A stretch of DNA of 45,967 nucleotides. Origin: Gonapodya sp. JEL0774. Lineage: Eukaryota. Below the pieces are notes generated by a model. The model ran no database searches. It saw only the letters and a program-made list of their open reading frames with translations, and was not told the origin of the DNA. Positions 7,106 through 45,615 of this stretch are shown piece after piece (the first letter of the stretch is position 1; each line of letters starts with the position of its first letter). A program made the position numbers and the translations under genes. The stretch covers positions 1-45,967 of the forward strand of contig JADIIX010000157.1 in assembly GCA_027604505.1 (NCBI GenBank). Reading direction: 5' to 3'.

Positions 7106-9670
7106 TCACCTTTGATACATGAGATGACCACTCCCACCTGCTAGAGACTTCATTCCAAACGGCACCGCCAAAATTTCATCCAACAAACTATCGCGGTGGT
7201 TTCCGTGCTGATTGTCCGACTGAACAGGCCAATGGCCCGCGATCATGCCCGGGGAAATGTTCCCCGACGATATCGGAATAGTGTTACTCTTAGAATCAAG
7301 ACGAGGAGTCCACAAGTTTACGCCGCTTATGGTTTGCATAGAGAGATTGGAAGGTGCTGACATGGTGTCAGATCCAGGCAACTGTGACCCGAGGGAGAGA
7401 GAGTTTCGGTGCGAGACAACGATACCTGGGGCGGATTGAGGTTGGGGAGACGGGGTGTTGTTGATATGGATGTGCACAGGGTTCGGCGGAGTGTACTGAA
7501 TGCCTTGGCTCCCAACATTTGATGATGCGATGATGAAGTTGGATCCTCCGCTAGGTACATTCACTCGCTGAGGAACAGCTCCGACATGTTGAGTGGACAC
7601 TGGCATCATCGTCTGCAGTACAACTCTGGTGCCACCTTGCTGCACGACTGATGGAACAGAGGAAACGATGTACTGTTCCGCGTTTGAAGTGCTTGAAGAT
7701 GTCCGTCGGCTCGGAACCGCGGTTGCAGTACTGTTCCAGGAAGGGTGAAGTGTCGATTGATAGGGGCTGTTGGTTACAACCCACGAAGGCGCGGTTTGGT
7801 ATCCAGCGGTCACAGAAAGTTGTGGTAGGGTGAACTCAGCCTTGGATGGTATCGCAGCGAACTGCGCGGACGGTAGCTGAGACTGCGAGTACTGTGCCTG
7901 GCCGAACCGAGCTTGCAAGTACTGGGGAGTATGTGCTGGCTGAGGTACGGTGACAACTGCACAGACCGGTGCGGGATCTTGTGTCCATGGTGCGACTTGG
8001 TAGTGTGGTACGGCAACACTTGGTCTGCTGGAAAACTGAGTTGTACGCACTCGTTGGCTGCTTCGCGGGTCATTGTTAACATTGACAGTGAGTTGGGGGA
8101 ACGGACTTGAAGGGGAGTGGTGACCTGCATGGTGTGTGACCGAACGATCAGGAAGACCTGCGGAAGAATTGCTCATTTGCCTGCAGCTTACCGGATCCAG
8201 AAAGTACGGGCGAAGGATAATATGATCGCACATCCGTTTGCGTAGCGGGAGGGCCACCCCACAACACTTCATCCTGAATCGGAACAAACAAACGTCAGCA
8301 ATCGACGAAGTGGAGAAAACAACACATGGTGTTATCGAGCTCATATACAAACTTGAATGTCACTTGTCTGTTGCTGTGAGCGAGATTGGTCCTCGTCAAG
8401 GCTAAAGTCCGTAATCTCAAGTGTTACCTGGTCCCCGAAACGGATCGAGTTTGCATCTCTCCGGACATTGTCCAGAGACGACGAGTGAACGAAGGACGAG
8501 TCTGTTTCCTGTTGTTCCGACTGTGACTCGTTCATTTTCCGCTTTTTCGAAACAGTAGTGCCCTTGCCCATCCGAACTTGATACTCCTCTGGTGGGGAGA
8601 CAGATTGAAGTGCTGCCACGGCGTGTGTTGGCGTCCGGATAGCGCCACTTGCAAGATCGGAAAGCGAATAGTACGAGACAAGGTGGTAGATGACGTCGTT
8701 CAGTGAGATGGAAATAGTCTTTTTGATGAGGCCGTCCGGCTGCGGGAAAGGTGGATGCAAACAACCAAAGATCAACATCAATCAGAGCACAACACGGATA
8801 CTAAAGTTCTAAGCTACAAAGACTGATTACTGACCTTGTATAGAAAGGTATTGGCGCTTGCCCCTAGAAATGGCAACGGCATGTGCATTTCAGTGAGGGT
8901 TGCAAGGTCCACACCGGTGGCCCGTAGGCTCTTCTTTCTCCGCATCGCTCCGTCCGACAAATCAAAAAGGCCTTCCTCGGTAGTTTCTACTTGCGAGTGC
9001 GGCGACGGCAAGGACAACGGCAGCGTGGGGGGTGCAACAGGACTTCCCGAGTCGGCGCTTGATGGTGCTTCTCCTTCGCTCAAGTCCTCGGCGTAGTCCT
9101 TGGGTTCATGGTTTCTCAGGTTACGTTTCGGGTACATCGATGCTTGCTCGGGTGACATTGTATGTGGTGCCTCGGTTGAACCCGCTTCAGCCGGGTCCAC
9201 CACGTCGCGCGCTTGATCTCCAGGTGGGGGTCTTCGACGATCTTCACGGTGTGGGGTCACGGATACGGATATCGGGTGCTTCCGTTGAAGTTCACGGTAG
9301 ATGAGGAATTGGCCGAGGACCCGTGATGGTGACCAGGTACGACCGTCAGTCCACCGTTTGATGTTGGATTCCTATCGAGAGTCACGTGATTACCACGAAT
9401 TCTCAGTCCCACAAGTGGGCCAAGATAACTCACTTCTTCATTAAAAACAAACACTGATCCACTGCGGATGCCAACTCTCTGCGTCTCCGTCAGGCGAGAG
9501 GTGACTCGATTCAATAATCCGTCGCGGCATCCCTGCAAGACCAATAGACAGTCCTCCACAGTGTCCACAAAACCATAAAGAGTCTCGAGCTCTTCAATAT
9601 CAATGTCTGGGTAGACACAATTGTCCTCGTCGTCGACGGCCTTGCGCTTTCGTGCACTCGGGATGCGCAT
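7106..9670 (-). CDS. Gti1/Pac2 (WOPR-domain, Wor1/Ryp1-like) transcription factor
   Basis: Spliced WOPRa reads ETLYGFVDTVEDCLLVLQGCRDGLL...IRSGSVFVFNEE|ESNIKRWTDGRTWSPSRVLGQFLIYREL. WOPRb reads PDGLIKKTISISLNDVIYHLVSYY. Exons about 9670-9434, 9371-8835 and 8739-8353, then a Q/S/P-rich tail. The 3' end is uncertain and may splice on to about 6901. Confidence 0.9.
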
Positions 9671-15206: not shown

Positions 15207-18200
15207 ATGGATTCCAGAGAACGACGGCCGGAGGAAAACACATACACCCAGAGAAGGCCGCCCTCTGTGGTGACGTATGTTGCTCCGCCGCCGATAGGGC
15301 AACCGGTTATGGTACCACCTCTACCGACGCCACCAGTGCTACCCCACTTCTTTTCGCCCTCCAGCGGTACACGGACGGTCACATCACAGTCATGGAGCTC
15401 GCCTTCCACTAGTCACGCAAGACCACTACACATGCCACACACGTATCCATCAGTGTATTCCACCTCCTCGTCGCACATCGCGCGCTCCCGAAGGAAACCG
15501 CCTACCCCATTGAAGGCGCATTTTGCCTTCACATCAATTCCACCAGTGCCGCAGGTTGTCTTACCCAAGCATCACACCTCCACCTTTATGAAGGGCTCTG
15601 CTGCCGCCAGTACAGGTGGACTGGGAACGCACCTCCTTGTTTCAAATCGAGACAGAGACAGGGCAACAGGGAACAAGGTTGGGACTCTTGTCGGTTCGTC
15701 GGCAGAATTTGGAGGGCTGATAAATGCCGGCGATGCAGACGGCGAGGTGGGTTCCTCTGGTCAGCGAGCATGAACCTCGGATAGCGCTTACTCGAACTGG
15801 AACTGGAGGTGCTCCCAGCAAACGTGATCTCGCTAGGGATGCACGTTGGCATTGTGTTTGCGATTGAGAAACTTCTAGCACCCATTCCGGATGTTGTTGG
15901 GGGCAACTAAATCGCAACAGATGAGCAATCTCAGCTGAATGGCAGAAATATCAGGCACGAACTTCGGAGCATGTCCATTCTTGCCAACTATTCGCTTGGG
16001 GACCTCACGAGTCCTTTTCCTGTCCCCATATATGTCTCGCAGTTCACCGTCGTTATTCACCCCGGTTCTCGCCTTCTCCGAGTCGGTCGGGCTCAAGATG
16101 GTATACCAAAACTTGTCCACAATGTTGTCGCTCGCAGAATTGACACGATCGGCCTGCTGCGATCTTTGCGGCTAAAATTTGGGACACTCTCCGGGAGCCT
16201 TCCTAACTTTTCCATCGAGGAATTGGCGAAGATGGTAGGTTGGAGCGAAAGCTGGGAGGATGCTGGGGATGAGTGGTATGCAGATGGGGTGACGGCAGGA
16301 TGGAACGACGGAATGAGTGATTCCAAGGGTGGAGTGGTGGTTGAAGGAAACAACGGCTATGGAGAATCTGGCTATGCTGCTGGGAACAAGAAGTGGAAAG
16401 AAAGCGACGTACAATATGGCTCTATGGACGTCGATGGACCCACTGAAAATGAAGGAGAACCTAATTCACCAACCTCAAATGATAATCCGAAATTTCCAAC
16501 GCTCTCCATCCATCACCCTACCTATCCTGCCACCCTCGCTGACCTTCATAACCATCTTCGCAATCGTGTGCGTGATCTGCGTGCCTCTGGTGTACAAGGT
16601 GCCCAAGAGAAAGTCTTGGCAGCAAACGCACGAGCAGAGACGGAATTCACAAGTATACCCGAGCTCAGTGATCGAAGAGCTGTTGCATGGACACGTTGGG
16701 GGGTCGGTGTGAGGGCCGATGGGTCTGTAGTTGGAGACGGTGGAGCTAGGGATCTGTCTACTCCAACCAAAGTGGGGGAGAGAAAGGATCGAGGGCCACC
16801 ACCAGATGTTGTAGTGGGGATCTCCGCTCTCAATCTCCCTCAATTCTCCCTCCCTCATGATCGTGATGCCGCATTTCGGGCCCTCCATGCGGCGCTCATT
16901 TCAGAAGAGCCCGAATCCCGCCTGGAATTGGTTCCGCCACTGTATGTCCTTCGCCGACCGATTCGTCATGGTGCACTCAATGCAACTTCATATGCGAGCC
17001 TTGCGCACCTCACTGGCGACATCGAGGCTATCTGGCGGAATGCCGTCACCGAGGTTGGAGTCTCGAGGAGAGATTTGAAGCGTTACAACCTGGTACTCGT
17101 GATACCAGACAAGTGCGACAAACTTTATGTGCAAACTATGGTACGCGTGGCCATGGACTTGTGTTTCCCTGCGGTGTTGTGTGTTCAGGAGAGTGCTGCT
17201 GCTTGTTTTGGTGCCGGTTTCGGGAATGGTACCTGCGTGGTCGACGTTGGAGCTGAGAAGAGCTCAGTGAGCTGCGTAGATGAAGGGATTGTGGTACAGA
17301 GCACAAGGTGAGTTGTTCACGAAGGTGGTCTGGTTGATCATTGTTGGATAAACGTGGAATCTAGCGCCCACTTCCTTTGCTTCCTTACAGAATCAACCTT
17401 AAGTACGGAGCCGATGACGTTACCTGGTATCTTTCTCACCTTCTATGGGCTTCTCACTTTCCTCATCGCTCTTTCGATCCATACCGGGTGCTCTCAGACT
17501 TCCTTCATGTCGCTGAACACGTCAAGGAGACAAACGTGAATCTGGACTTCGGAGAGCTAATCTCAACTCGCAATATGACTGTTGAAGTAAGGTCACCGGG
17601 ATGTGACGCGAGAGTGTGGACTGTCCGTTGGTGGGATGAGGGTATCTTGGCAGCAATGGTGAGAGTCTATCCACGTTTCTTTGCGGGAGAGTTTTCGACT
17701 CAGGACATTTCTTTTCAGATTTTGTTTTATCCTTCTATTATCAATCACTACCAAAAGCTGCGCGGGCTTTTGTATCCGAGATACTTCGCTGGCGGATCCT
17801 TCCCGTTGAAGGTTACGAACGATGAGGATGATGCAGTTGTCAAACTATCCGTTTTGCCGAACTACCCACCACCTTCGGTTGAACTTCTCAGTGTCGATGA
17901 GTGGGTTGCAGGTGTTGGTTCGCAGGCTCTTGGGGGTTCACGCTCTCTGAAGGAGATCGTTGAACAAGTCCGAGACTTAGCGCGCACTGCAAAGCGGAGA
18001 AAGATCAGTGAAACTCGTGAACTCGGCGTAGTAGAGTCCAAGACGGAAGATAACCGACTGGAAGGTGTGATGGCAACTTCGGAAGCGTCACACGCCGATT
18101 TGGCCACAGGGGACGAGCTGAGACCCGAGCGTACATCCTCCTCTAGCAACTCTGAAAGCCACAGATCAGCGATGCAAACCAAACCGCTTGATCTGCTTGT

Positions 18201-19086
18201 TGCGGCTCAAGAGCCTCTAGATGTCTCAATTGCACGGAGTCTCCTTCTGTACCATCGAGCCATGGCTCAATCACTGGCGGCTGGTGATCCCGCATACATC
18301 CCTGACCCAAAGCTATCCGCTCAAGTACAGATGCCCAACGCAGAACCATTTCCTGGGCAACCGCCTACTCCCCTGCATCCTTTCGCGGATGAACTTCTCC
18401 GTCGCATTGCGTCAACGGTGTTGCTTGCAGGGGATGGTGTGCAGACATCCCGCCTTTCCGAAACTTTACAAGATCGTGTGCAGCAACGCCTCAACGAAAT
18501 GATTGCAGTGCACTTGCCGCACTTATACTGGAGCGTACCACTGGTGAACCGAGATGAATGGGAGCTAGAGGAGGCTAAGGCGCGGGCGCCTGCTGAGAAT
18601 GGACAACAAAGCCTCACTTCCGAATTTCGACCTGGTGTTGTGACTGGCGTAGAAAAATCGATTGAAAATGTGACCACGTCTCTTGCCTCCAGTACCTCAA
18701 ACGGCCTTTCCAATGCGCCAAAATCAGTAAGTGCGCCAGGGGCGACACATGCACGTGGGACTGAAAGGGGTCGTGGCCGCGGCTCACATTTGAAGGGATC
18801 CAGAGGGACTTCGTCCAGTGCTAACTCATCGAAAGCGGCTGGGAACGGTGGCTACAGTTCAGTTGCAAAACCATCCGTTATTTTAGGTCCCCCGAAAGTA
18901 CTTGTTATATACCCTCCACCAAGAGACATTCCTCCAGGACATCTCGTATGGAAAGGGGCATCGGTATTGGCAAGATTAGAAATCGCGAGAGAGATGTGGA
19001 TTGGTCGAAGTGAATTTGAGAACGCCGGAATAGCGAGAGTTTGTCAGGTGGGAGTCCGGACTATCATGAAGTTAGAACAGAATTGA
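15207..19086 (+). CDS. ARP8: Actin-related protein 8 (INO80 complex subunit)
   Basis: TVVIHPGSRLLRVG; VLVIPD..KLYV; VQESAAACFGAG..TCVVDVGAEKSSVSCVDEG; INLKYGADDVT; PPRDIPPGHLVWKGASVLARLEIAREMWI. N-terminal FTSIPPV motif. Multi-exon, and a small last exon may lie beyond 19086. Confidence 0.88.
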
Positions 19087-19388: not shown

Positions 19389-22300
19389 CTACAGTTTGGG
19401 CCGAGTCGACGAAATGCCTTTTCTCTGTTTCTCCTCTTCCCATAGCCTTGCCACATCCTTCTTTAATAGACCCTTCTGAACCTTCCCATTTGGATTCCTA
19501 CAGCGGATGTCAAATGCGTCAGAGGAGAACTTCTGTTCGTTGTAGTGAAATCTCATACGAACCGAGGAATATCCTCGAACTGTATGTGCACAAACACGGG
19601 GATTTTGAATCCCGCCAGCTTGGGGCGCAAGTGTGCTAGAATGTCTTCAGGAGAGAGTTTAACATGCGTGGGCTTGGGAACAATTATTGCTGCAGGTTCT
19701 TCGCCGAGGATGCTAAAGGTGGGGGTATCGACATTTGGATACTCTTCCAACTTGTGAGAAGTAATGAAGCTTACCGATGTGGGACGCCTACAATCTGGCG
19801 CGCAGAAGGGGTGTGTGAAAAGTGAGCTTTCCGGGCAGTACAAGATCGCGAACCAAGGATATCCCACCGTGCAGTCTAGTACACCTCTATCCAATCGGAT
19901 TCCATAGATGGTGTGGCAAGTCAGGGCATTGATAGAAACAACGTCAACGAAACATATACTCACGGGTGTGTGAAAATAGCATCCTCAATCTCCTGACAAT
20001 AGATGTTTTCGCCTCCACGAATGAGCTAGAAGGATGTCCGTGAGTCAAATGTATAGTTGTCCGAGTGACGTGATCACACACCATGTCCTTGATTCGATCC
20101 TTAACAAGTCAAAACCGGGTTCCGGTAAGTTTCCGCGACACAATCTTCGATCGAGGTGAGTGAACGTACCTTGATGTAAACGTAACCGGTTTTCGCGTCA
20201 ATATACCCCACTTGAAGATGATAATAAAGCTCTCAATGACATGGCAAGATAACAGCGATTAAACAATACTGCGCATTACCATCACCAGTGCGATAGAATC
20301 CATTTGGTAGGAACGCCTGTTTCGTTGCATCCGGGTTTCTCCAATATCCTTTGATGATGTTCACTCCTCGAATCAACAGTTCACCAACTTCGCCTTTTGG
20401 GACCTCCAGCAAAGTGTCAGGGTCTTGATCCCAGCGTGGTAAGTATCGGTGGAACTTAATAGGTTTTAGCAAGTGCAAAAGGCTCACCGGCAATGATTAC
20501 TTCATTCAGAGGATGTGGTATACCTGCCGAGTCAGGGTAGTTTATATAGTCCATACCTGTTGTTTTAGGCGGTTACACAAACTTGCGCTACGAATGGTAG
20601 GTCAGAAAAACAATAAGCCTCAAAAATCTCACCAGAAATGCTAGTTGCGACAGGCGAAGCTTCTGTCATTCCCCACGCCTAGTGTTTCAGAGTTTCACGA
20701 AAACCGTCTTAAATATGAGAGAAACACTTGTACATTGCTGTAAAGCGAGCTATTCACCGTTCCTGGAGAACCTTTGAAAACCTTTGCAAAGTTCACAGCG
20801 AGCTCTGGGTGTGCGGGCGCTCCGCCGTACCCAGCCTTCATATTATCTGTCAGACGCGTAATCGCAGATTTTTCGGCTAAGCCAAGACTCACTGAAATAA
20901 AACTGCTCAAATCACGTTTGCCATTCCTTGCGTCGGGGTGTTCCACGAGCATCATGATAATTGCGGGAACAGCACTCATACCGCTCACTCTCTCCTTCTC
21001 AATCACCCGCAGAGCATCACCAGCTTCAAACTGGGAAACGGTAGGACCAAATTCATTCAGTCCGGTGTTATCTCGGACAGTCTCATTCGGCAGATCATAC
21101 CTTGTAAACCATGACAAGTTTCCCACCATGTAATGTGGTCCCTCCGAGAATGGAAACCGCGGTGACGTGGAACAGTGGAACAACGAGGAGGTTCACGCTT
21201 TGTGGGTCTTCTGGGCCCAATGGAAGTTTCGGGACTGGCATTCCCGCCCGAACTGACGAGGTAATCACATTGAACATTAAGGTCGGTGACATTGGGGTGG
21301 AGAAATGAACGGATTTCTATGCAAAAAGTAGCCATCTCACTTAAGCCGCGAATTGTCCCGAGCATAGCCACCCATTGGTTAGTGATGAAATTGCGGTGGC
21401 TGCCCAAAGCAGCTTTAGGCCGGCCAGTGGTTCCGCTGGTAGACCATTCACTATTCAGACAATGCAGCTAAAAAGAGCACCTGGTGTACACATCTCCTAC
21501 CTGGTGAAAAGGACTGACGAACCAGGCCGAAAAACGATGAGGTGAATCGTAGCAAGATTGGCTCCCATGACAGTACACTCACTTGTGGCATCGTCCTCTG
21601 GCAAAATGTTCACCGGGGTCAAGAAGTTCCTGTCTCTCTCCCCTGAGTATTTGCTCAAAACAGTTTCCCACGTTACGGTTCCAGGATACGACGCACTACG
21701 CGACGCGGGTGGTTGGGACAAAGAGCGCGCAAGAATAAATTCGGAAACACCACCGCGCTTGAGATCGGGGATGCGAGAGGCGAGACGCTCGTAACGTTCA
21801 GGATCCTAGTTGGATAAGTTCGCTGTTTACACAGATGTATGCGGAAACAATGGGGGGAGGACATCGAGAGACATACGATGATAGCAACTTTGGCGTCGGC
21901 AAGAGTGATACAGTAAGAGAGTTCGTCCGTGACTAATCGTGGGTGATAATTTGTTGGTTGGAAGTCTATTTGCGGAAAAGGCGAAAAAAAAAAAGTACCT
22001 AGCCAAGCGTTGACTGTGCCAACAGCAAAATACATTGGATGTTATTCTGTACACCGGACCAATGCGACAAGCAACAAGAAACGCTCACCCATGGCCGGGA
22101 TGGCACCCAACATTTGAGAAGCCCAAAATGCGATAATCCACTCCCTTTTGTGACACACATCAACATCATCCACAGTGCGTTGTTTGGAGGTACACAAATC
22201 TTTACTGAAGAGATTCTTCAAAGAATATTCCAGGACCATCACTTACGGGTAGTTCCTCATCGCAATGGCGATTCTGTCGCCCTTCGCGACACCATACTCC

Positions 22301-28962: not shown

Positions 28963-30598
28963 ATGTCTATTCCATTGCTCACCACCAAAAACCCATACCT
29001 TCTGATTACTAGAAGCGGCTTCGATCCATCAATCCATGTCCCGCCGGCTCTTCGTCTCCGAAGAGCACGATGGTGGATTGACCCTGGCAACACAAAGAAT
29101 TCTCGCTTCGCAGGAAAAGGGAATGAGGAGGAAGATATTGAAGGCGCACCTGTCGAAATATTAGTGACTGTGGCGGTGCATGGTAACGAGCAGGTTGGTT
29201 CCATGTACATTTGAAGCACGATCGTCGGCGATCGGGGTCCATCAGCCAGCATCACCCCGTCAAAATATGATTGAAAACATTTGTAATCATTTGCTTTCAT
29301 TTTAGTGTGGTCTTCGTGCCATAAACCACTTGCTCTCCTCTCAATTCTTCCCATCCTCTGCCAACATCAGGCACTTCCAACCCGCAGAACTGGCAGCCGA
29401 CTTTGATCTCCTGGCGTCTGTCGATGGTGATGAGACCGCTTTCCTCGCTATTGCTTCACGGACCTATTCCGTTTTGGAATCGCCCGGCCTATCTGACTGG
29501 CCGTTCGCGTGGGACTCTCTGACTGTTGTGCTCGGCAATCCTGCAGCGGTCCTTGCCAAAAAGCGATTCGTGGACACAAATTTAAACCGCACTTTCACGG
29601 CAGATATCATTGCGGATGCCGTGAAGAAGGAAGGCCTGCACTTGGCGAGCCCTAAAGCGTTTCGCTTGATCGGAGTGCCTGACCCATTGTCCACCAAATC
29701 TTATTCTCAACCTCCAATCCCTGTGGCTGAGCGCTCACTAGTCCCTCCCATCGCATACCTTATCTCCCACTCCACGTCTCTCCTTGACATCCACTCTACT
29801 AGCTCCCCGACTGCCGCGTTCTCAATTCCACACAACCACCAACTGTCACGCGCCATGTGTGCCGGATTGCCCGTGCCGTTTGTAGTAGAAGGAATGCTCG
29901 ATGTACAGGAAGGGACAACTGGGTGCTGGGCGAGGGAGGTGGGGATGGCGAAAGCCGGGGGGGTGGAATGTGGACAGCATGACGCGGAGGAGGTATGTTT
30001 CGAAACCTGACAGTTTGCGATTAAATGGGGAGCCAATGTGCAGAATCAGTTTTTGGAGACATACGAATCACAGTTTGATATTTGCCCGAAGGGAGTTGCG
30101 CGCGGAGCCCCAGAGGATCCAATCGGAAACCCAGGGTCATTGTTCCGTAGAACTTGGCTGAGAGGCTGTTATTGACAACAGAGGACATTAGATAAAACGT
30201 GTCAAGAACCTAACCACAGGATTCAGACGTCACTGTTTTATCTCACAGTCTCTTCTTTCTCCGCTTCCTATCAGTCATTCCAGAAAGCTGTAGAAATCCT
30301 CACCCACTTGCTTTTCATCGACTCCCCAGTATCTCCATCAACCACAAACACGCCACCCCGTGTTCTCCACATTTCATCATCGGTTTTCTGCCGTTCCAAT
30401 TTCCGCTACGTCAAATCTCCACCACCACCTGCATTCGCTCACATTGCAGAGGGGGAAATCGTAGCAGAGGATGAGCGAGGAAAGATTCTCTGTGATGTCA
30501 AAGGTGGAGCGTACTTGGTAATGCCTGTGGCAGAACACTTAGTACACGTGGGAGAAGAAGCGTGGGTGTGGGGCGTCCAGAAAAAGGACGTCAACTGA
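28963..30598 (+). CDS. Succinylglutamate desuccinylase/aspartoacylase (AstE/AspA, M14-like zinc hydrolase)
   Basis: VAVHGNEQ|CGLRAI (intron about 29194-29305), GNPAA...KRFVDTNLNRTF, LLDIHS and GGVECGQH contain the Zn ligands, substrate Arg/Asn and catalytic Glu. C-terminal barrel-like segment GEIVAED...YLVMP...VGEEA. Confidence 0.85.
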
Positions 30599-36370: not shown

Positions 36371-39300
36371 TCAGGGGAGAACCATAACGCAGTCTTGGTA
36401 GTTGAGAGCCAACAGGACATCTAGGATCTGATCATTTAGCACGTGATTGCCTGACACAATAATTCTTGTTTCGTTACTCGGAACTGAATTGTCTTCATCG
36501 AGAACTCTCAGCATAACTGGTTTAGTCGCTGAGGCGACCAAACTCGGTGAACGCGACATCCTATTCCCTGTCAGAGGAGACAGCAAGGGAGTTCGCCATC
36601 TGCGAACGAGCTCAACCTTTTCATTTCATGAGCTCACCTGCGGCTGCGAAGTTCAGAGCTGATTTCGTAACCTTGGGTGGTGGTGGTAGATTCGATGAAA
36701 GAAGTTCATTGTCGATTGTTTCCTTTACGTCGCTGACCCACGGAAGCTTGGCACCATCTAAATGGCGAATCACAACCTTCAGCGATAAAGCGGACCCCAA
36801 TGTTGCAACATGCTCTTCAATCAATTCGCGTCCCACAACATCCTTCTCGGTCTCGAAAATGGCGGTGAGCCACAGCTTGAAGGCCGGCGTGCCATTCTCA
36901 AGACGGGGACCATTCCTTGTGTAATACTAGTAATGAGCAAGTAATGATGGTATCAGAAAGTCAAACGCAGCGAGTAATGAAAACGACAAGACGTCTTGAA
37001 TTGAGAATACCCACGTCAATGAGTTGCATCATAGGAGTTATACCTATTCCCGAGGACACCATTCCGACGTTTCCAAAGCACAGGGATGGATGCGATAAGT
37101 TGGCCATCACAGGGTTCCGACCATCTTCACCGCCTCTCATGAACTTCACACGAATGTTGCTACCGGCCTCGGTTCGATCTAGTAAGGGGGTGAACTCTCC
37201 TTTGGTACGTATACGTACAATAAACGGTATTGATCCTTTGCAAAGACTTTTAATTGGAGTGTACGGCCGCTCGATTAGCTTCCCTTCGGCAGAAGAAAGC
37301 TGGATAGAAATGTGATCGCCAGGTGCAAATGTCACCTCAGCGCTAGGATTTGGCAGTGCAAGGGAGCATTGATAGACTTTTGATGATGCTGACGGCGAGC
37401 TTAGGACCTTCTTTTCCTTCAGTGGCAGAAGTCGGTACGCGTGATTCAGAAGCTGTAAGAGCGGCACGTCACTTGTAGTAAACGAAGGTGTCCTGGCAAC
37501 ACGTCCAGTTTCTTCTGCGAAAGACTTCGTTTTTACCACAGAAAGTCTTGCAATATCCGCTCCGGACAGATTGCCGGCTGGATCGACCTTTGCAAAAGCT
37601 TTGATCCTGCCACAGGCCAGGCCCTTAAGCCTGAAGTACTCGATGGTGAGAACAGGAAATGCCGGAGACAACATGAGAAACTCACTGAAACTCCGCGACA
37701 CGCGAGTGATTGTGCCGGCGTCCTGCTCCTGGTAACTCGTCACCGGTGAAGTATGGAGTACAATCAGTTCCAACCACTGCTTGTAGGATGCGCAGACCTC
37801 CGGGATGGTGGTTCATCCAGTCGTTACTCGCTAAATCATATACAACGTCCTTAATGACGATGTATTTCTTGCCTTTCGTCGATAATCTAACAAATCAGTC
37901 CGGACTCCGGTGAAGATTTGCTCATGCATACCCACCCTGCGCGATTTGGTCGTTGAAGTCCTTCCAAGTCATTTCCACGAGTTTTGCTATAACGGGATCT
38001 ACTGCGTTCTTGATCTTGTGCTTGGTCAGCTCGTCGTCATTAACTGCACTTTGAGTTCTCCCCAAACGCTCGTAGACCTTTCGCCGATGACCGAACATCA
38101 TCATGAAAACAGGTACAGAAAGCACGGATATTAAGTATAAAGCTTGTGCAGCCGCAACTTGCGCTGAGGTGGTCGAGATTGAATGTGTGAGCAAATCTGT
38201 GACTCCCAGGTAACCGTTCGTGAGTGCTGTGAAATAGGCAAGGTAACCAGCAACTCTAGAACGCAAAAGAAAAGATGGATTGAGTTTAATGAGAGCTTGA
38301 GGGAGCGGAGCAACACGCACATGTGAAGAGTTCGAATGTACGCTTGAAATCTTGCCAATAACTGGCCCAGTCGCAGAATTCGCACGTAGTGTACAATGAC
38401 GTATCCGGAAAGTACCGACCACGTAGTAACTCCTAATAGAATCAACCCAATTATAGGGTGAATCGACAGTTGGCCGTTTGCGATCTTCCCAAAGATGGCC
38501 AGCTTGAAGCACGGTATCAAATCGTTACCAAAATGAGTCCGCAAACAATCCATCGCGAACGTACCACACCCGATATAAATACTTCAGTATAAATAAAAGC
38601 GCACACTTGCTCGTGAAGTTCTAGCCACTTTTAAAGGATCAGGATGGTTGGAGGCCCAATCCTCAGGCAAACGTGCCGGTGCCTACATCACTCACGTTCG
38701 AATACGTGGTTGAGTTTCTGGCAACGAAAATGGCGAATGGCATCAGGACTCCAAAACACAGTAGCATCAGAGCTGTTTTGCAGATTGGCGTAATCGTCGG
38801 TACCTGATATCTTGAGCTTTAGCGACAATCACTCACATCCGTGAATAATTTGCAGCACTGGGAGCGGATCCATAGTATCGTTCGTTGACACATAAGCGCT
38901 GAAGAAATCTATTTCCATTTTCGCCTTGTTGGGACCGTGGTAAGCGATACTTCTGTGTGATAGCGACCAAGCATACCTATCACAGTAAGGGATGGGATAA
39001 TCAACCAGTGCATCATACACTCAAGATAGTGATCAGTACTTACGTGACCGTAGTGATTCCTGGAGAAATATCGTTGTCGTTTGGATCCCCTGTCACTAAC
39101 TTTCGGGAAAATCCAACGACCTTGAGCCACGTCGTGTCCCCCTTCTTAGAAGTAAGGTCAACGAAATTCTCGACACTGCTGGAACCACCGAGATCAATGT
39201 CCTGGGAAGGAACTGCAAACGCCGTTGACTTGCGATCACTGATTCCACCAACTCCATTGTTCAAATCTGGTTCGTAAGCATAGATATCTTGAGAAGGCAT

Positions 39301-40891
39301 GCCGCTACCAATTCCAAACGCGAACCATCCTAAGAAATTTACAACTCAGTCAAAGTGTTAACTCGATAAAACAGACACCGACTCGCCTGTTGTCGCTCCA
39401 TATACCTCGAAGTCAATGTACCCGGCGGCCTCATGTATCTGCCATCGCAACATAATGTAACTTCCTAGCCTGACTGATTTCCAATCACCATCCGTTTCAA
39501 CAGTCAAGGTGGCGTCCAAGGCCGAGCTCAGACGTCGCACGCGAGAAGTTGCGTCACCAACGACAGTCACATTATTGGCCGAGTTCAAAGTCGCGCCCCG
39601 CTCCAAAAGCTTCTGATAAGCCGAAGTAAAATCTTGGTAGAATAAGCTGTTGTTTGCTGCATATTGTAATGATATTTCACGATAAATCGGGTCTTGCCAA
39701 AGCGCGTAGTCCGAAACAAGCATCATTAACGTGTTATCAGAGTTATTGTACTGAACTTTGGAGTTTGGATTAACCACTGCGGTCCAATTACTATTGGAGC
39801 TCACAAGCAACGTAAAGAACTCGTTTGTGAACCTAGAGAAGGTCGGGTGCTCTGAAGTGGCGAACTCCACTCCCTTTGACGATGGACTCACCTTAGCGGA
39901 TTGTGTGTCCATGGACTGAAGAAAGCGAAAGCGAAGACAAATTCATAGGAGATCACCTGCATCGACTGAGGGACAACTTACCCAATGTAACCACTTCAGA
40001 TGCTTATGTGTGTCAGTGCATTCATAATACCCGAAAACAAACTGGGAGCAGCATTTACCTTCGATCGTAATGACACCGACCCAGTGCGTGACCACCGCCA
40101 ATGACGGCCACAACCTCACGATCGTTCAATCCCATACGAGCAAAAGTCTTCCGAATTTGAGTCGCATTGTTCGCACCCGATGGTAATCGACCAGCATTCA
40201 TCGACGAGTTGTATTCTCCGGGACTTGGACGGAGGGAGAAAATTGGCACAAGCCACCCAGACGTAGTTCTTACATAGCTCAACGACATACTTGTAGTCGA
40301 TCCTTCCGCAGCGAAATGGAACTACGGGTCCACCACTTGGTTATCAAGGGTGCGGTCGCAGATGGGTGGTGTGGACGCAGCATTCGTAGTGCTAGAATCC
40401 ACCATACCTTTCATATACCGCAACCGTCCCAGCAAAAGCCCACAAATCGGCGTAACCAATTGATGGATAGGACTCCTTTATGAGTTCCAATGCGTCAATC
40501 GAGTTTTGGAGAGATACATGACCTCCGCTAGGGGGAACCAATTTCAGAGTACCCCGAGCTCCACCGGTACCGTCAACAATACTGTACGTTCCAGCGTCAG
40601 CCCTAATTGTATCATGAGTGATGGGGTTAGTATGTTCCAACTACGGTCTTGCGAACAGACATCGTGAGGCAATCCTCACGCCAGTCAAATCAACACTCAC
40701 CATGCAAGACGTACGAGTAGCGGACCCCATCCAGCGGCCACCATCCCTGCCAGACTGTTCCGTAACTCCATCCATTCTTGAGCTGACAGACCGCATATGG
40801 ACGCGCCATCCGTAAGAGTAGGTATCAAGATGACAGCTGTAAGCAAAGTTGCGATGAGAGCAATATCCCAACGGGAGTGATGCATTGTCAT
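36371..40891 (-). CDS. Five-domain redox fusion: signal peptide, class I heme-peroxidase fold, DOMON, cytochrome b561, cytochrome b5, FNR-type (cytochrome b5 reductase-like) flavin reductase
   Basis: Peroxidase: [143 protein letters not shown]. b561 His: QIIHG, WLELH, SIHPIIG, RTLH. b5: [45 protein letters not shown]. The linkers that could be read are in frame. Confidence 0.85.
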
Positions 40892-41181: not shown

Positions 41182-41925
41182 ATGAAAGTCGCTGAAGCCA
41201 CCTCAAGCCCTCCTGCTGCTAATATGATTGGCACCAGGGATGGGATGGACGTCGATCTCACAACAAATGAAACGATGATGAGACCTCGTCCACGGGCCAT
41301 GCCTGCGCTCTCAATCGACGTTACAAACGCAGTAGCACAAGCAAAGGCTCGGAATGCGCTACAGAAGGCGTTGGAGGACAATCGGTCACCAACAACCATC
41401 AATACCCTCATCAAGCAACTGCAACAAACAAGCGCACCAGCCACAAAACTTTCGTCCCTCTCTGTGCTTTCAGGCATCCTCAAGCGTAAATTTGATCCCA
41501 CCAAGTACGAGATAAACACTAGGGACCCACTGCGCTCATTGGAGTCGGTTGCAGACGCACTTCAGTGTCTTGCACCTGAGATAACCGATAATGAAATCGC
41601 AAAGGCACTTGTCGAATGCTTGCCAAATGAACTAAGGGCAAAGTATGACAAGGGTAGCATGCCTATAAGCCACTACATTGACAGGCCTGCAAGACCAGCA
41701 TCGTTGGACGATATGATACACTGGGTCATGGCACATTGCTACAACCCAGCAATAGAGCACTACTTCCAGAATGCCAAGGTGCACGGAAGTTGGCCATCAG
41801 ACAAACAAGGCAATATTGTACCAACACCAGATGTGCTTGAGGACCTCATCCACTGGCACAGGGCGATGCTCAAGTATTGGACTCCGCTTTACAATAAGAC
41901 AGCCCCCAGAGAAGCTGTTCTAAAC
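41182..41925 (+). mobile_element. Possible retroelement gag/capsid-like ORF remnant
   Basis: Intronless, A-rich ORF with a capsid-like helical pattern (DPLRSLESVADALQ...EIAKALVECLPNELRAKYD...LDDMIHWV). It switches abruptly to GC-rich unrelated sequence at about 41927. No pol or LTR seen. Confidence 0.35.
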
Positions 41926-41926
41926 C

Positions 41927-42979
41927 ATGCGGCGATCATTTCGCGCGCGCCACAACACCAACAGTGGCACCTTCGACCGCTTCGCGAACGGCGACGTGCA
42001 CCACGTGGACGGGACTCCTCCCAGAGAGTCTCACTCAGCCGCATGGCTCCGCCCTCTGCTCGACGGGTGCTGGTCCCACGAGTCTGGCGTCGTCAGGGAG
42101 CTTTGGAGGCACTTCGTGCTGTTCGCCAGCTGCGCCTCCATCTCGAACCCCTCCAAGATCCCCGACTCGCAAATTGGTCAAGTCGCAGTTTTTGAGGCCA
42201 AGGGATTCAATCGGCAGGAGGCCGACGAACTGGAGGATGCGGACAAGTTCCTGTACGCGCAGGCGCTGAGTCTCCCAAGAACCATTCGCGCATAGATGAC
42301 CATCGGTTCGTCGTCCACACAATCCAACTCTTCCGCTCGGCCCTCACCGTCCACCACCTTTTCGAGGCCGGCCCCATCAAGGGCGGCAAGTTCCCAGTGG
42401 CAAGGTTCATGGACTTCCAGCTTGATCTCCCCACGGCGAGGAAGCCCGCTGTCATCAAATCCCCAACGATATCCTATGATGAGGACATTGCCGTTGTGAT
42501 GGCCGGGCATTGGAAAGGGAGGATCTCCTTCATGTCCTTCTCGAGGAAGCTGGCGCAGTCCTCGAGGACGTCAAGCGGAGAAAGTTTCATAAAGGCCCCT
42601 GACCCACGCTACTATCAAAAGGAGTATCCAGGAGCTGGATACCAAGCTGACGCAGGTCTGTCTCGACTTCCAGTTAGCAGCATTTCTCAACATCCAGGTG
42701 TGAGCGGCAGAGAACAAGGACGACGCACGTTCTGCTCAGGCTGGTATCCCGCAGAGAATGTTTACTTTCGAAGTCAGGTGTGAAATCAACAAATGCGACC
42801 AGAAGGCGATTCTCAGATTGCACCTTGCGACAAACGCCCGACTCGAGGCATTGAAGTCCCCCCAATATGAAAAAAAGTCTGAGAGTAGGCGCAGGTCTGG
42901 CAATGACGCTGTGCGGAGGCACGCTCAAGCGCAATTTAACCTCGGGGTGTGCTGCGAGCAAGGCAGGGGCGTTGAGTGA
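41927..42979 (+). pseudogene. Mosaic of broken gene fragments including a truncated Sel1-like repeat
   Basis: GC-rich coding-like segment with an apparent frameshift near 42270. It is followed by ATIKRSIQELDTKLTQVCLDFQLAAFL with an in-frame TGA at 42701, and by HAQAQFNLGVCCEQGRGVE* (Sel1-like consensus) at 42920-42979. Confidence 0.5.
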
Positions 42980-43291: not shown

Positions 43292-44840
43292 CTACAGCTT
43301 TAATACGGTCTTTTGAGATGCCTTCCATCCATCCAATACGTTGTTTTTGGGATTGTCCAGCCTGGCCTGGGACGCTTCGTACAGCCTTGGAATACCGGTA
43401 CTCTTGAAGTCTGCGCCTTCCATCACCATTGACGCCACACCCTTTGCGGATAAAAAGATCTGCGGCATGCCATGGCCGGTGAACCCGGCAAGCATAAACT
43501 GGTTTTGTCTCCCGGGAACGACTCCAACATGCGGTGTTGAGTCCGTGGAGTAACCCATAACTGAGACACACCAACGTTAACAACGATCTCACAACGGTAG
43601 CCAAGATAGATTGACTTACTTCCAGTCCACACCTTGTCCGTGTACGCGCCGGTATCTTCCCAACCCTTGAAGACTTTTTGCATGTACCCATCAAAGTAAT
43701 GCTTCGCCTCCTCAATCAAATTATCGTCATTGACATTGCCATACCACTTCTCCAGGTCATGGTAGTACTCTGACCTCGCACCTCCCACAACAATGCTGCC
43801 GTCCAGTCTAGGGATGAGGTATTCATACTTACTTTCCGACCATCGAATGATGTAAGAGTACGGCAGCAACGGAGCGGGAGTCTTGCCAGGGTGGATATGA
43901 CTGCATATTCCCCGCACAGGAACAATCTTTTCTGAGAACTCAGGCAGGATCGACGAAGTGTAGCCGTTGGTGGCGTACACAATGTTCTTAGCGCGCACAG
44001 TTCCCCGCGGCGTTGTGAGAGTGAGGAATCCATCTGCATCGGGCTTTTCTGTGACATTGGTCACCGGTGTGTGTGTTTGTAGGTTCACTCCAGCGGCGAG
44101 TGCCTTTTCGAGTAGCCCGATAACAAGCTTGTATGGCCACAGGTGACCGGCTGTGTATGAGAGACAACCTTTGGCTCCCTTGACGCCTGACAGCTGGTTC
44201 TGGTCAGCAATCTAAATTGACGTGATTTAGACAGGCTAACTTACTTGCTCCGCCTCTGCACCTTTTGCAAAATACACATCGCCCATCAATTTGACGCCAT
44301 GTTTCCTCAGCAACTCAACTCCAGACCTCATCTGCTCGCAGATGGACTCGGTCATCAATGCGTCGACAGCACGTGTATACACCAAGTCACAGTCAAATCC
44401 CTCAGCTTCAATAGCCTTCTTCACAGCCGCGAGGTTCTCGGCCTCGAAGTTTGCGCACTCGCCGGCAACCTCAACGCCATGGGTCAGGGCAAGAGTTGAA
44501 GGCCGGTTGTAAGGGTCAGGTTTCAAATGGCCACCTACATCAGCTCGAGATTAGCATTGGATCGATATGAAATATGCAAAGAAGTACCATTTCGGCCAGT
44601 AGCCCCAGAGCAAGCCTCTCTCGCCTCAAGAATCACAATATTCGGTGGCGGGTTCCCCTTTGCCTTGCAGATGTTGAAGATGTGGTAGACCGTCGAGACG
44701 CCTGCATATCCGGCACCAATGACGGCAATGTCGACTTGTGAGGGGATGTCAGAGGTAGACCGGTGATTGTCGAGTGGATGCGGACATGACCTCCAGAAAG
44801 AGGTCGTGGAGTTCGGAACCGGGAGCGGGGAGGGCGGCAT
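43292..44840 (-). CDS. FAD-dependent oxidoreductase, DAO family (PuuB-like)
   Basis: TTSFWR; DIAVIGAGYAGVS; ILEAREACSGATGRNG|GHLKP; AGHLWPYKL; VYATNGYT; IVPVRG; EYLIPRLDGSIVVGG; WTG|IMGYSTDSTPHVG; LAGFTGHGMP. Exons 44840-44588, 44534-44245, 44193-43620 and 43560-43292. Confidence 0.93.
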
Positions 44841-45615
44841 GGCGCTTATCCGTATCCAGAGTTTCTTAATTGGAGAGGGATACAACGAAGCAATGTGATG
44901 TGGCGAAGCTCTCATCAAAGCCCCCTGACCTGCTGTAGTAAGGACGCCATCCCCGCTTGCTAAATGTAAACCCGGCTTCACCCGAGGTTGCCTGGATTGG
45001 TTGGGTACAGGTTTCGTTCTTCAGTGGTCAATATACATTGTCCTTCATTTCCTGTCAATTGCGGATGAATTGTATTCAATCAAGACCCCAACTCGCTCCC
45101 TTGCCTACCCAACCACCCCACACTTTTGACCACTCTCCTGCTAATAGAAATTGTCAAGAGGCAATTAGGAAGTACTGCAAAACTTGTTAGAAAACTGTGT
45201 AGCGATGCATTTCAGTCAGGAGACAATTCAATTTAAGGTACAGTAGGTCGAGGAACTGAAAATGTGTGCGAGGAGTAAGTTGACGCACTTTTGCTCGGTG
45301 TAATGCCAGAAGAGGGACTGGCCTAAGCACAAGACTGGTTGTGTTGCGCCGGATGCGTGAACGGGATAGCAGTTCGCGCGGGCGTCGTCGGGACAGGACT
45401 TATAGAGAAGCATCGTTACCAGGGAGCACATCTATAACCTGTACATAGGTATGCATCGAGATACTACGAAGATGTGCGAGAGATTTCAAAAACTGGGGCC
45501 GGAGATATGTGGAGAGACTCGGAAGTCCCAGCAGAACGTACGAGGGTGTTCGAGACCAACACTAATCAACAACCGTAACCTTTTACCACGATATCAACAC
45601 TTATCGAGATCAACG

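Follow-up and report, generated by a model that had tools for sequence, protein, structure and literature searches.

The locus and its gene

The window, that is, the whole stretch of DNA analysed here from the aquatic fungus Gonapodya sp. JEL0774, comprises 45,967 nt. On its reverse strand, at 36371..40891, lies a gene of 17 exons, delineated by tblastn with the deposited model and a paralogue, which encodes 1144 amino acids without an internal stop. In gene order, the product consists of a predicted signal peptide, a class I peroxidase domain, a DOMON domain, a cytochrome b561, a cytochrome b5, and an FAD/NAD(P)H reductase. The peroxidase domain, or head, is N-terminal, which is the sense in which the initial annotation of this DNA called it 'terminal'; the part behind it is referred to below as the wire.

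The neighbouring genes include an actin-like gene (15911-19086), a Gti1/Pac2 gene (near 8817-9371), an AMP-binding enzyme (near 20698-21192), a desuccinylase-like gene (29306-30010), and, on the reverse strand at 43292-45020, a spliced gene for an FAD-dependent oxidoreductase (Pfam DAO). About 300 bases from the start of the gene, the forward strand carries two long, GC-richer reading frames of 337 and 195 amino acids (41182-42783), which have no match in Pfam and are possibly the remnant of a mobile element. No redox gene cluster is evident around the gene within the window.

Fifteen introns are of the GT-AG type and one (39386-39330) is GC-AG, with lengths of 55 to 98 nt. All exons are on the reverse strand. 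The putative signal peptide in exon 1 (40808..40891, hydrophobic residues 9-27) was recognised by hydropathy. Exons 3 and 4 (40059..40335) encode the proximal His189 (40090-40088), His195, and Arg198 (40063-40061), the last at the position of APX Arg172. They are followed by two micro-exons, namely exon 5 of 12 nt (39993-39982) and exon 6 of 24 nt (39915-39892), which includes the proximal Trp205 (39911-39909; Trp191 of yeast cytochrome c peroxidase, CcP). Exon 7 (39387..39832) holds the end of the peroxidase, with Asp252 at 39711-39709 (CcP Asp235), a linker, and the start of the DOMON domain. Because this single exon spans both domains, the fusion is independent of any guess about splicing. 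The deposited NCBI model, HDU93_002149, skips exons 3-6 with the proximal His and Trp, the DOMON start, and the last exon (36567-36371), so that databases present the head without its haem ligand. The peptide encoded by exons 3-6 is independently contained in a protein of a second species, G. prolifera KXS21765.1 (P0014).

The first splice junction

Exon 1 (40701..40891) closes with the codons R-L-A-W, in which the distal Arg61 occupies 40711-40709 and Trp64 is split by intron 1. This intron (40603..40700, reverse strand, 98 nt) has a GTGAGT donor at 40700, a TACTAAC at 40632-40626, and, as the first AG downstream of it, the AG at 40604-40603, after which exon 2 continues as W-A-D-A-G-T-Y. Every junction coordinate in the initial annotation is borne out, and the protein reads R-L-A-W-A-D-A-G. 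The codon GCT at 40599..40601 (reverse strand) places Ala65 where class I peroxidases have their catalytic distal His (CcP His52), with which it aligns without gaps.

It had also been considered that a different splice or a hidden micro-exon might restore the His. None was found among the GT/GC-AG paths tested, which comprised every single-intron path and, for two introns, every combination in which the micro-exon did not exceed 40 nt and neither intron was shorter than 20 nt. Eighteen single-intron paths leave the frame open, and only that with the 98-nt intron keeps R-x-x-W-x-D; the two-intron paths, within the same limits of micro-exon and intron length, gave no R-x-x-[W/F/Y]-H. Retention of intron 1 leads to a stop directly after Trp. 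An in-frame His-Asp is present in the 3' part of the intron, where it is reached only by splices that remove the Trp. The deposited model has the same junction between exons 1 and 2. As read from the genomic sequence, the splice junction without His is confirmed as real.

An artefact, whether a sequencing error or a wrong splice junction, is scarcely credible. Any His codon is two base changes away from GCT, no alternative splice path supplies one, and an independently deposited species also lacks His at the site, although its residue likewise comes from a gene model. A sequencing error is very unlikely in particular, since the G. prolifera counterpart has Val there.

The peroxidase head

The head matches PF00141 at 39.4 bits against a cut-off of 27 (Pfam, with the truncated deposited model), and an atlas search returned PF00141 clusters only. 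The initial annotation had listed the haem-site residues that are kept, and correctly so: the distal Arg61 and Trp64 are in place, and the proximal His189, Trp205, and Asp252, within GGGHALG, GPW, and VSD, are present in the genome. The PF00141 fold, the proximal His-Asp-Trp triad, and the distal Arg and Trp of class I peroxidases are therefore all found, and the catalytic distal His is missing. According to the available text of PMC4232752, that residue is present in all characterised members of the class, and because it is absent here we do not count the head among the catalytic class I peroxidases. On its sequence, it is a class I homologue rather than a canonical catalytic member.

KXS21765.1, a partial model of 233 amino acids, is identical to the head at 179 of 233 positions (77%) and carries Val at the distal His site, a residue that rests on the gene model. 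The distal Arg and Trp, the proximal His, Trp, and Asp, His195, and Arg198 are identical in the two proteins. The AlphaFold model of its domain (pLDDT 91.8) has the CcP fold, with TM 0.93 (Foldseek; TM 0.89-0.94 to CcP). A word-limited, and weak, search for a C-terminal partner of KXS21765.1 found none among the 7995 candidates of near length and 7991 shorter ones that were scored.

A homologue search among 1.84 billion representatives yielded 45 class I domains, which have at the distal site His (34), Gln (5), or Arg, Val, or Ala (one each), three being cut off there. Once the Gonapodya, DOMON-fused, and two near-duplicate rows are excluded, 31 of 31 reference domains have His in this column. 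Columns kept in at least 90% of these references are more often identical between the two Gonapodya species (42/47) than are variable columns (70/99; Fisher p 0.012), which argues that the head is still constrained. The head of the window retains 41 of these 47 conserved columns, near the minimum for the references, which range from 40 to 47. The loss of the distal His is, we judge, very probably real and maintained. Whether the exchange of His for Ala is conserved in the fused forms, as the initial annotation had asked, has a divided answer: the site is Ala here and Val in KXS21765.1, but a fused paralogue, HDU93_009172, retains His (R-L-T-Y-H), although in it Tyr replaces the Trp and Thr the Asn.

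In a quick tree, the head clusters with chytrid class I peroxidases that possess the His (SH-aLRT 92), several of them with hydrophobic N-termini, and G. prolifera has eight CcP-class genes according to part of PMC6937255. On these two grounds, recruitment of the head from a local expansion of class I peroxidases appears plausible.

A second change, absent from the initial annotation, lies at 40520-40518. In a shortened loop, His92 (40518..40520, reverse strand) occupies the position of CcP Asn82, the residue by which the distal His is oriented, and KXS21765.1 has the same loop with the same His. This companion change in both species favours a working H2O2 peroxidase, in which the part of the distal His would be taken over by His92, by a water chain, or by an external base, as do the grouping with His-bearing chytrid enzymes and the paralogue that keeps its His. 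We nevertheless regard such a peroxidase as quite improbable, given that the reference domains retain the distal His without exception. In CcP, moreover, His52 is the acid-base catalyst that removes a proton from H2O2 and supplies one to the leaving oxygen, and its mutation strongly lowers the catalytic rate (PMC9125774, in part). The initial annotation held a conventional H2O2 peroxidase to be unlikely, and the loss of the His from a site whose haem-binding side is kept supports this. The head is likely to bind haem and to be wired to the domains behind it, as its retained residues predict.

Compared with yeast CcP, ascorbate peroxidase, and the trypanosomatid APx-CcP hybrids (all PF00141), the head is alike in fold at about 40% identity. 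It shares with class I peroxidases the distal Arg and Trp, the proximal His, Trp, and Asp, and an Arg at the APX ascorbate site; it differs in having Ala at the distal His, His at Asn82, and Ser at the Gly84 position, and in the addition of a predicted signal peptide and a fusion to a multi-haem flavin wire.

The predicted electron wire

The domain bounds given for the haem-binding parts of the wire are approximate, and all lie on the reverse strand. The DOMON domain (38837..39490) has the predicted haem ligands Met370 and His468, in the ligand pattern described in part of PMC10784552. The cytochrome b561-type membrane domain (38080..38850; a weak Pfam match, E 0.036) supplies His500, His532, His563, and His608 within five predicted helices, four of which exceed the hydropathy threshold. 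The cytochrome b5 domain (37686..37990) contributes His738 and His771, and the gene ends with FAD- and NAD(P)H-binding domains like those of cytochrome b5 reductase (36371..37480), which have both the R-x-Y and the G-x-G-x-x-P motif. Of 49 family rows, 46-49 have any given one of the eight haem ligands of the wire, and the window gene encodes the full set. The chain from which the initial annotation would draw electrons for the head is intact in sequence, with every haem and flavin ligand kept. The predicted structure of the paralogue HDU93_009172 has five long helices (pTM 0.49, with low-confidence linkers), and the best matches of its reductase are NADH-cytochrome b5 reductases. In the window protein, seven glycosylation sequons lie ahead of helix 1 and five past helix 5, a distribution that gives no indication of the topology.

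The middle of the protein has the pattern of the CYBDOM proteins, with Met and His in the DOMON domain, four b561 His, and five helices. According to the available text of PMC10784552, CYBDOM/SDR2 ferric reductases have the same ligands and helices. They differ from the Gonapodya protein in their electron source, which is ascorbate there and appears to be built in here (cytochrome b5 and reductase), and the latter has an additional haem head.

Relatives with the same wire and other heads

The wire is widespread among the matches, and its usual head is unrelated to class I: an animal-type peroxidase head (PF03098) sits on the same wire in 27 of the best 34 of 150 matches listed. Carriers of the wire include Polychytrium, Cladochytrium, Thoreauomyces, Synchytrium, and Lobulomyces, together with Entophlyctis, Chytriomyces, Phlyctochytrium, Borealophlyctis, and Sorochytrium. 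One animal-type head matches lactoperoxidase-like and DUOX1 structures. Alignment of 53 such heads left 44 that could be scored (eight were gapped and one near-duplicate was dropped). With the sites labelled by the myeloperoxidase motifs, both His are present in 20 of them, only the proximal in 17, only the distal in two, and neither in five. The paralogue and 22 of the 44 heads thus keep the distal His, which implies that apparently competent peroxidases, too, are used with this wire.

Trees were built from the wire only (49 rows, 761 columns; FastTree and quick IQ-TREE, no bootstrap). A 21-row chytrid clade (FastTree 0.996; SH-aLRT 98) takes in both Gonapodya fusions with class I heads and a G. 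prolifera paralogue without a head; eight of its rows have cut or unscorable heads. Among the scorable animal-type heads of the clade, the distal Gln and His are absent in 10/10 and the distal Arg in 9/9, the proximal His is kept in 10/10, and a new His stands one residue earlier in 9/10. FastTree and IQ-TREE disagree on whether Gonapodya is sister to that clade or nested in it, and no root is inferred; the direction of the head swap is taken from the animal-type head being the majority state. A tree joining Gonapodya to the His-bearing Sorochytrium pair, a group chosen after the tree had been inspected, was rejected (p-AU 0.0098).

Nine heads (P0019, P0021, P0027, P0016, P0020, P0008, P0037, P0032, and P0051) have W-G-x-x-x-H-x-D/E where the usual heads have Q-x-x-x-H-D. 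On their motifs, these chytrid heads, with the proximal His kept and the distal Gln and Arg lost, are taken to be a pseudoperoxidase subfamily of their own. The headless G. prolifera wire paralogue, KXS22503.1 (P0006), has a hydrophobic N-terminus directly ahead of its DOMON domain, and no peroxidase head was detected in it.

The new His near the lost one in both types of head, namely His92 in the two Gonapodya proteins and its counterpart in nine of ten animal-type heads, bears on an alternative in which the head is a relay. It would then extend a ferric reductase in the manner of a cytochrome, possibly with a haem six-coordinated by His92, or serve the acquisition of iron or haem; its acceptors might be Fe(III) chelates, quinones, or extracellular enzymes. 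The existence of the headless paralogue agrees with a relay, and DOMON-b561 proteins are ferric reductases, the CYBDOM proteins being so without any head at all (PMC10784552, in part). We consider a relay unlikely. The domain P0130 has His at the Asn82 position yet retains its distal His, and ferric-chelate reduction needs no low-potential haem. The Asn82 position of CcP, furthermore, lies far from the iron, which counts against His92 as a ligand.

That the head is catalytically inert or in decay and serves as a scaffold, in the manner of the DUOX peroxidase-homology domain or plant APX-L, is less probable than a relay. It is consistent with the variation of the distal residue by species (Ala or Val) and with the loss of both His in 5/44 animal-type heads, and it has precedents in the Drosophila DUOX, which is without both histidines (PMC4654585, in part), and in APX-L, which binds no haem according to part of PMC8069737. 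These precedents, however, lose the proximal side too, whereas the proximal His, Trp, and Asp, His195, Arg198, and the distal Arg and Trp are identical in both Gonapodya species. The APX-like proteins (APX-L/TL29) are natural class I domains that likewise lack the distal His (PMC8069737, in part). They have lost all catalytic residues; the head has lost the His and its Asn only.

A possible haem-terminated extracellular oxidase

The reading that we favour, at a probability of about 40%, is that the intact CcP-type fold uses electrons from the wire to reduce O2 to superoxide or H2O2, and would not consume H2O2. In the sequence, the distal His is replaced by Ala, and the distal Arg and Trp, the proximal His, Trp, and Asp, and the ligands of the wire are kept. 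The signal peptide and the five helices predict that the head and the DOMON domain lie outside the cell or in a lumen and that the cytochrome b5 and the reductase are cytosolic. By homology, electrons would pass from NAD(P)H to FAD, the b5 haem, two b561 haems, the DOMON haem, and finally the haem of the head. There, O2 would be bound by Fe(II) and held by Arg61 and Trp64, whose CcP equivalents, Arg48 and Trp51, hydrogen-bond iron-bound oxygen (PMC9125774, in part). Since the acid-base His is absent, cleavage of the O-O bond to Compound I should be slow, so that reduced oxygen would be released as superoxide or H2O2, and a head of this kind would leave its own product undestroyed. In CcP, mutation of His52 costs about five orders of magnitude in rate, and the H52Q variant reportedly oxidises H2O2 rather than reducing it.

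That heads of an unrelated fold on this wire have lost their His as well in other chytrid fungi, a parallel absent from the initial annotation, makes it likely that the haem end does a different job. The oxidase reading also agrees with the architecture of P0047, which carries multicopper-oxidase domains, an O2-reducing module, ahead of the same wire. The head keeps its distal Arg, whereas the animal-type heads have lost theirs, and the chemistry of the two may therefore differ. The main objection to O2 reduction is energetic. The Fe(III)/Fe(II) potential of CcP is near -0.19 V and that of DOMON-type haems is near +0.1 V, on which values the transfer from DOMON to head would be uphill; against this, the overall drop from NADH is still favourable. 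Reduction of a ferryl through the retained Trp would be downhill.

The retained ferryl-stabilising Arg and Trp and the equivalents of CcP Trp191 and APX Arg172 could also serve a detoxifier, in which the haem without His reacts with peroxynitrite, peracids, or hypohalous acid, or in which Fe(II)-O2 dioxygenates NO, the wire recycling the haem in either case. The former substrates require no base for their deprotonation. A class I fold without the distal His is also that of the Leishmania major pseudoperoxidase, which is not known to be fused to a reductase. This haem protein, which was absent from the rows of homologues listed, decomposes peroxynitrite (PMC12398798, in part), and the roles of the four retained residues are described in parts of PMC9125774 and PMC9358470. 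NO dioxygenation by Fe(II)-O2 has its model in flavohaemoglobin, an NO dioxygenase in which a haem domain is likewise fed by an FNR-family reductase (PMC3820574, in part), with a soluble globin fold there and a peroxidase fold, predicted to be part of a membrane-spanning protein, here. A detoxifier is doubtful all the same, in that the animal-type heads of the sister clade also lack the distal Arg and that the organism is presumably a saprotroph under no obvious nitrosative pressure.

For the oxidase reading, the closest parallel in design is DUOX, in which an extracellular peroxidase-like domain without the catalytic His sits on a transmembrane NAD(P)H-flavin-haem chain (PMC3591440 and PMC4654585, each in part), and relatives of the Gonapodya gene match the DUOX1 peroxidase domain. 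The differences are substantial. The membrane part of the Gonapodya protein is of the b561 type, accompanied by DOMON and cytochrome b5, instead of a ferric-reductase/NOX core, and its head has an unrelated fold (PF00141, not PF03098) with the proximal His kept. Neither a ferric reductase nor an EF-hand family was detected in the window protein with Pfam at E up to 0.1 (truncated deposited model). In the available text of PMC3591440, DOMON and peroxidase-like domains are described on ferric-reductase cores only. The Gonapodya protein may work like DUOX but, by its domain composition, is not one.

Broader significance and other architectures

Class I domains without the distal His are known already, namely APX-L and the Leishmania pseudoperoxidase; natural ones that have lost the distal His alone are rare. 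Family surveys set such His-less sequences aside (PMC4232752, in part), and the G. prolifera protein may sit in the lists of excluded sequences of that survey or in curated peroxidase databases. Neither the fusion nor the substitution was found in the largely open-access literature covered on the fusion architecture, Gonapodya peroxidases, and pseudoperoxidases.

Maintenance of the loss in two species, together with a parallel loss in a non-homologous fold, suggests that the cell surface of chytrids hosts a haem chemistry so far unrecognised, for which the production of reactive oxygen species, NO handling, and iron uptake are candidates. We tentatively propose that early-diverging fungi possess transmembrane haem wires of a class not yet described, each a single chain driven by NAD(P)H, whose outer heads are interchangeable (animal-type, class I, or multicopper oxidase), and in which two unrelated peroxidase folds might independently have shed the acid-base His and kept the haem ligand, to become wire-fed enzymes that activate O2 or NO. 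If this is true, a DUOX-like oxidase has arisen anew out of b561 and cytochrome b5 reductase components. The small, soluble head makes the role of peroxidase domains without His, a question long open for DUOX, directly testable, and a control is at hand in the paralogue of the same organism that retains its His.

Further architectures were observed among the relatives. In two large proteins, Prymnesium parvum KAL1499200.1 (P0040) and P0061, class I domains, two or three in number, are interspersed with DOMON-like repeats, and all scorable ones lack the distal His, with Gln or Arg in its place. P0047, of 2338 amino acids, has DOMON, b561, and multicopper-oxidase domains ahead of the same DOMON-b561-b5-reductase wire. 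The longest chain is predicted for P0004, a protein of 4632 amino acids in which about 20 DOMON repeats are followed by a cytochrome b5 and reductase end.
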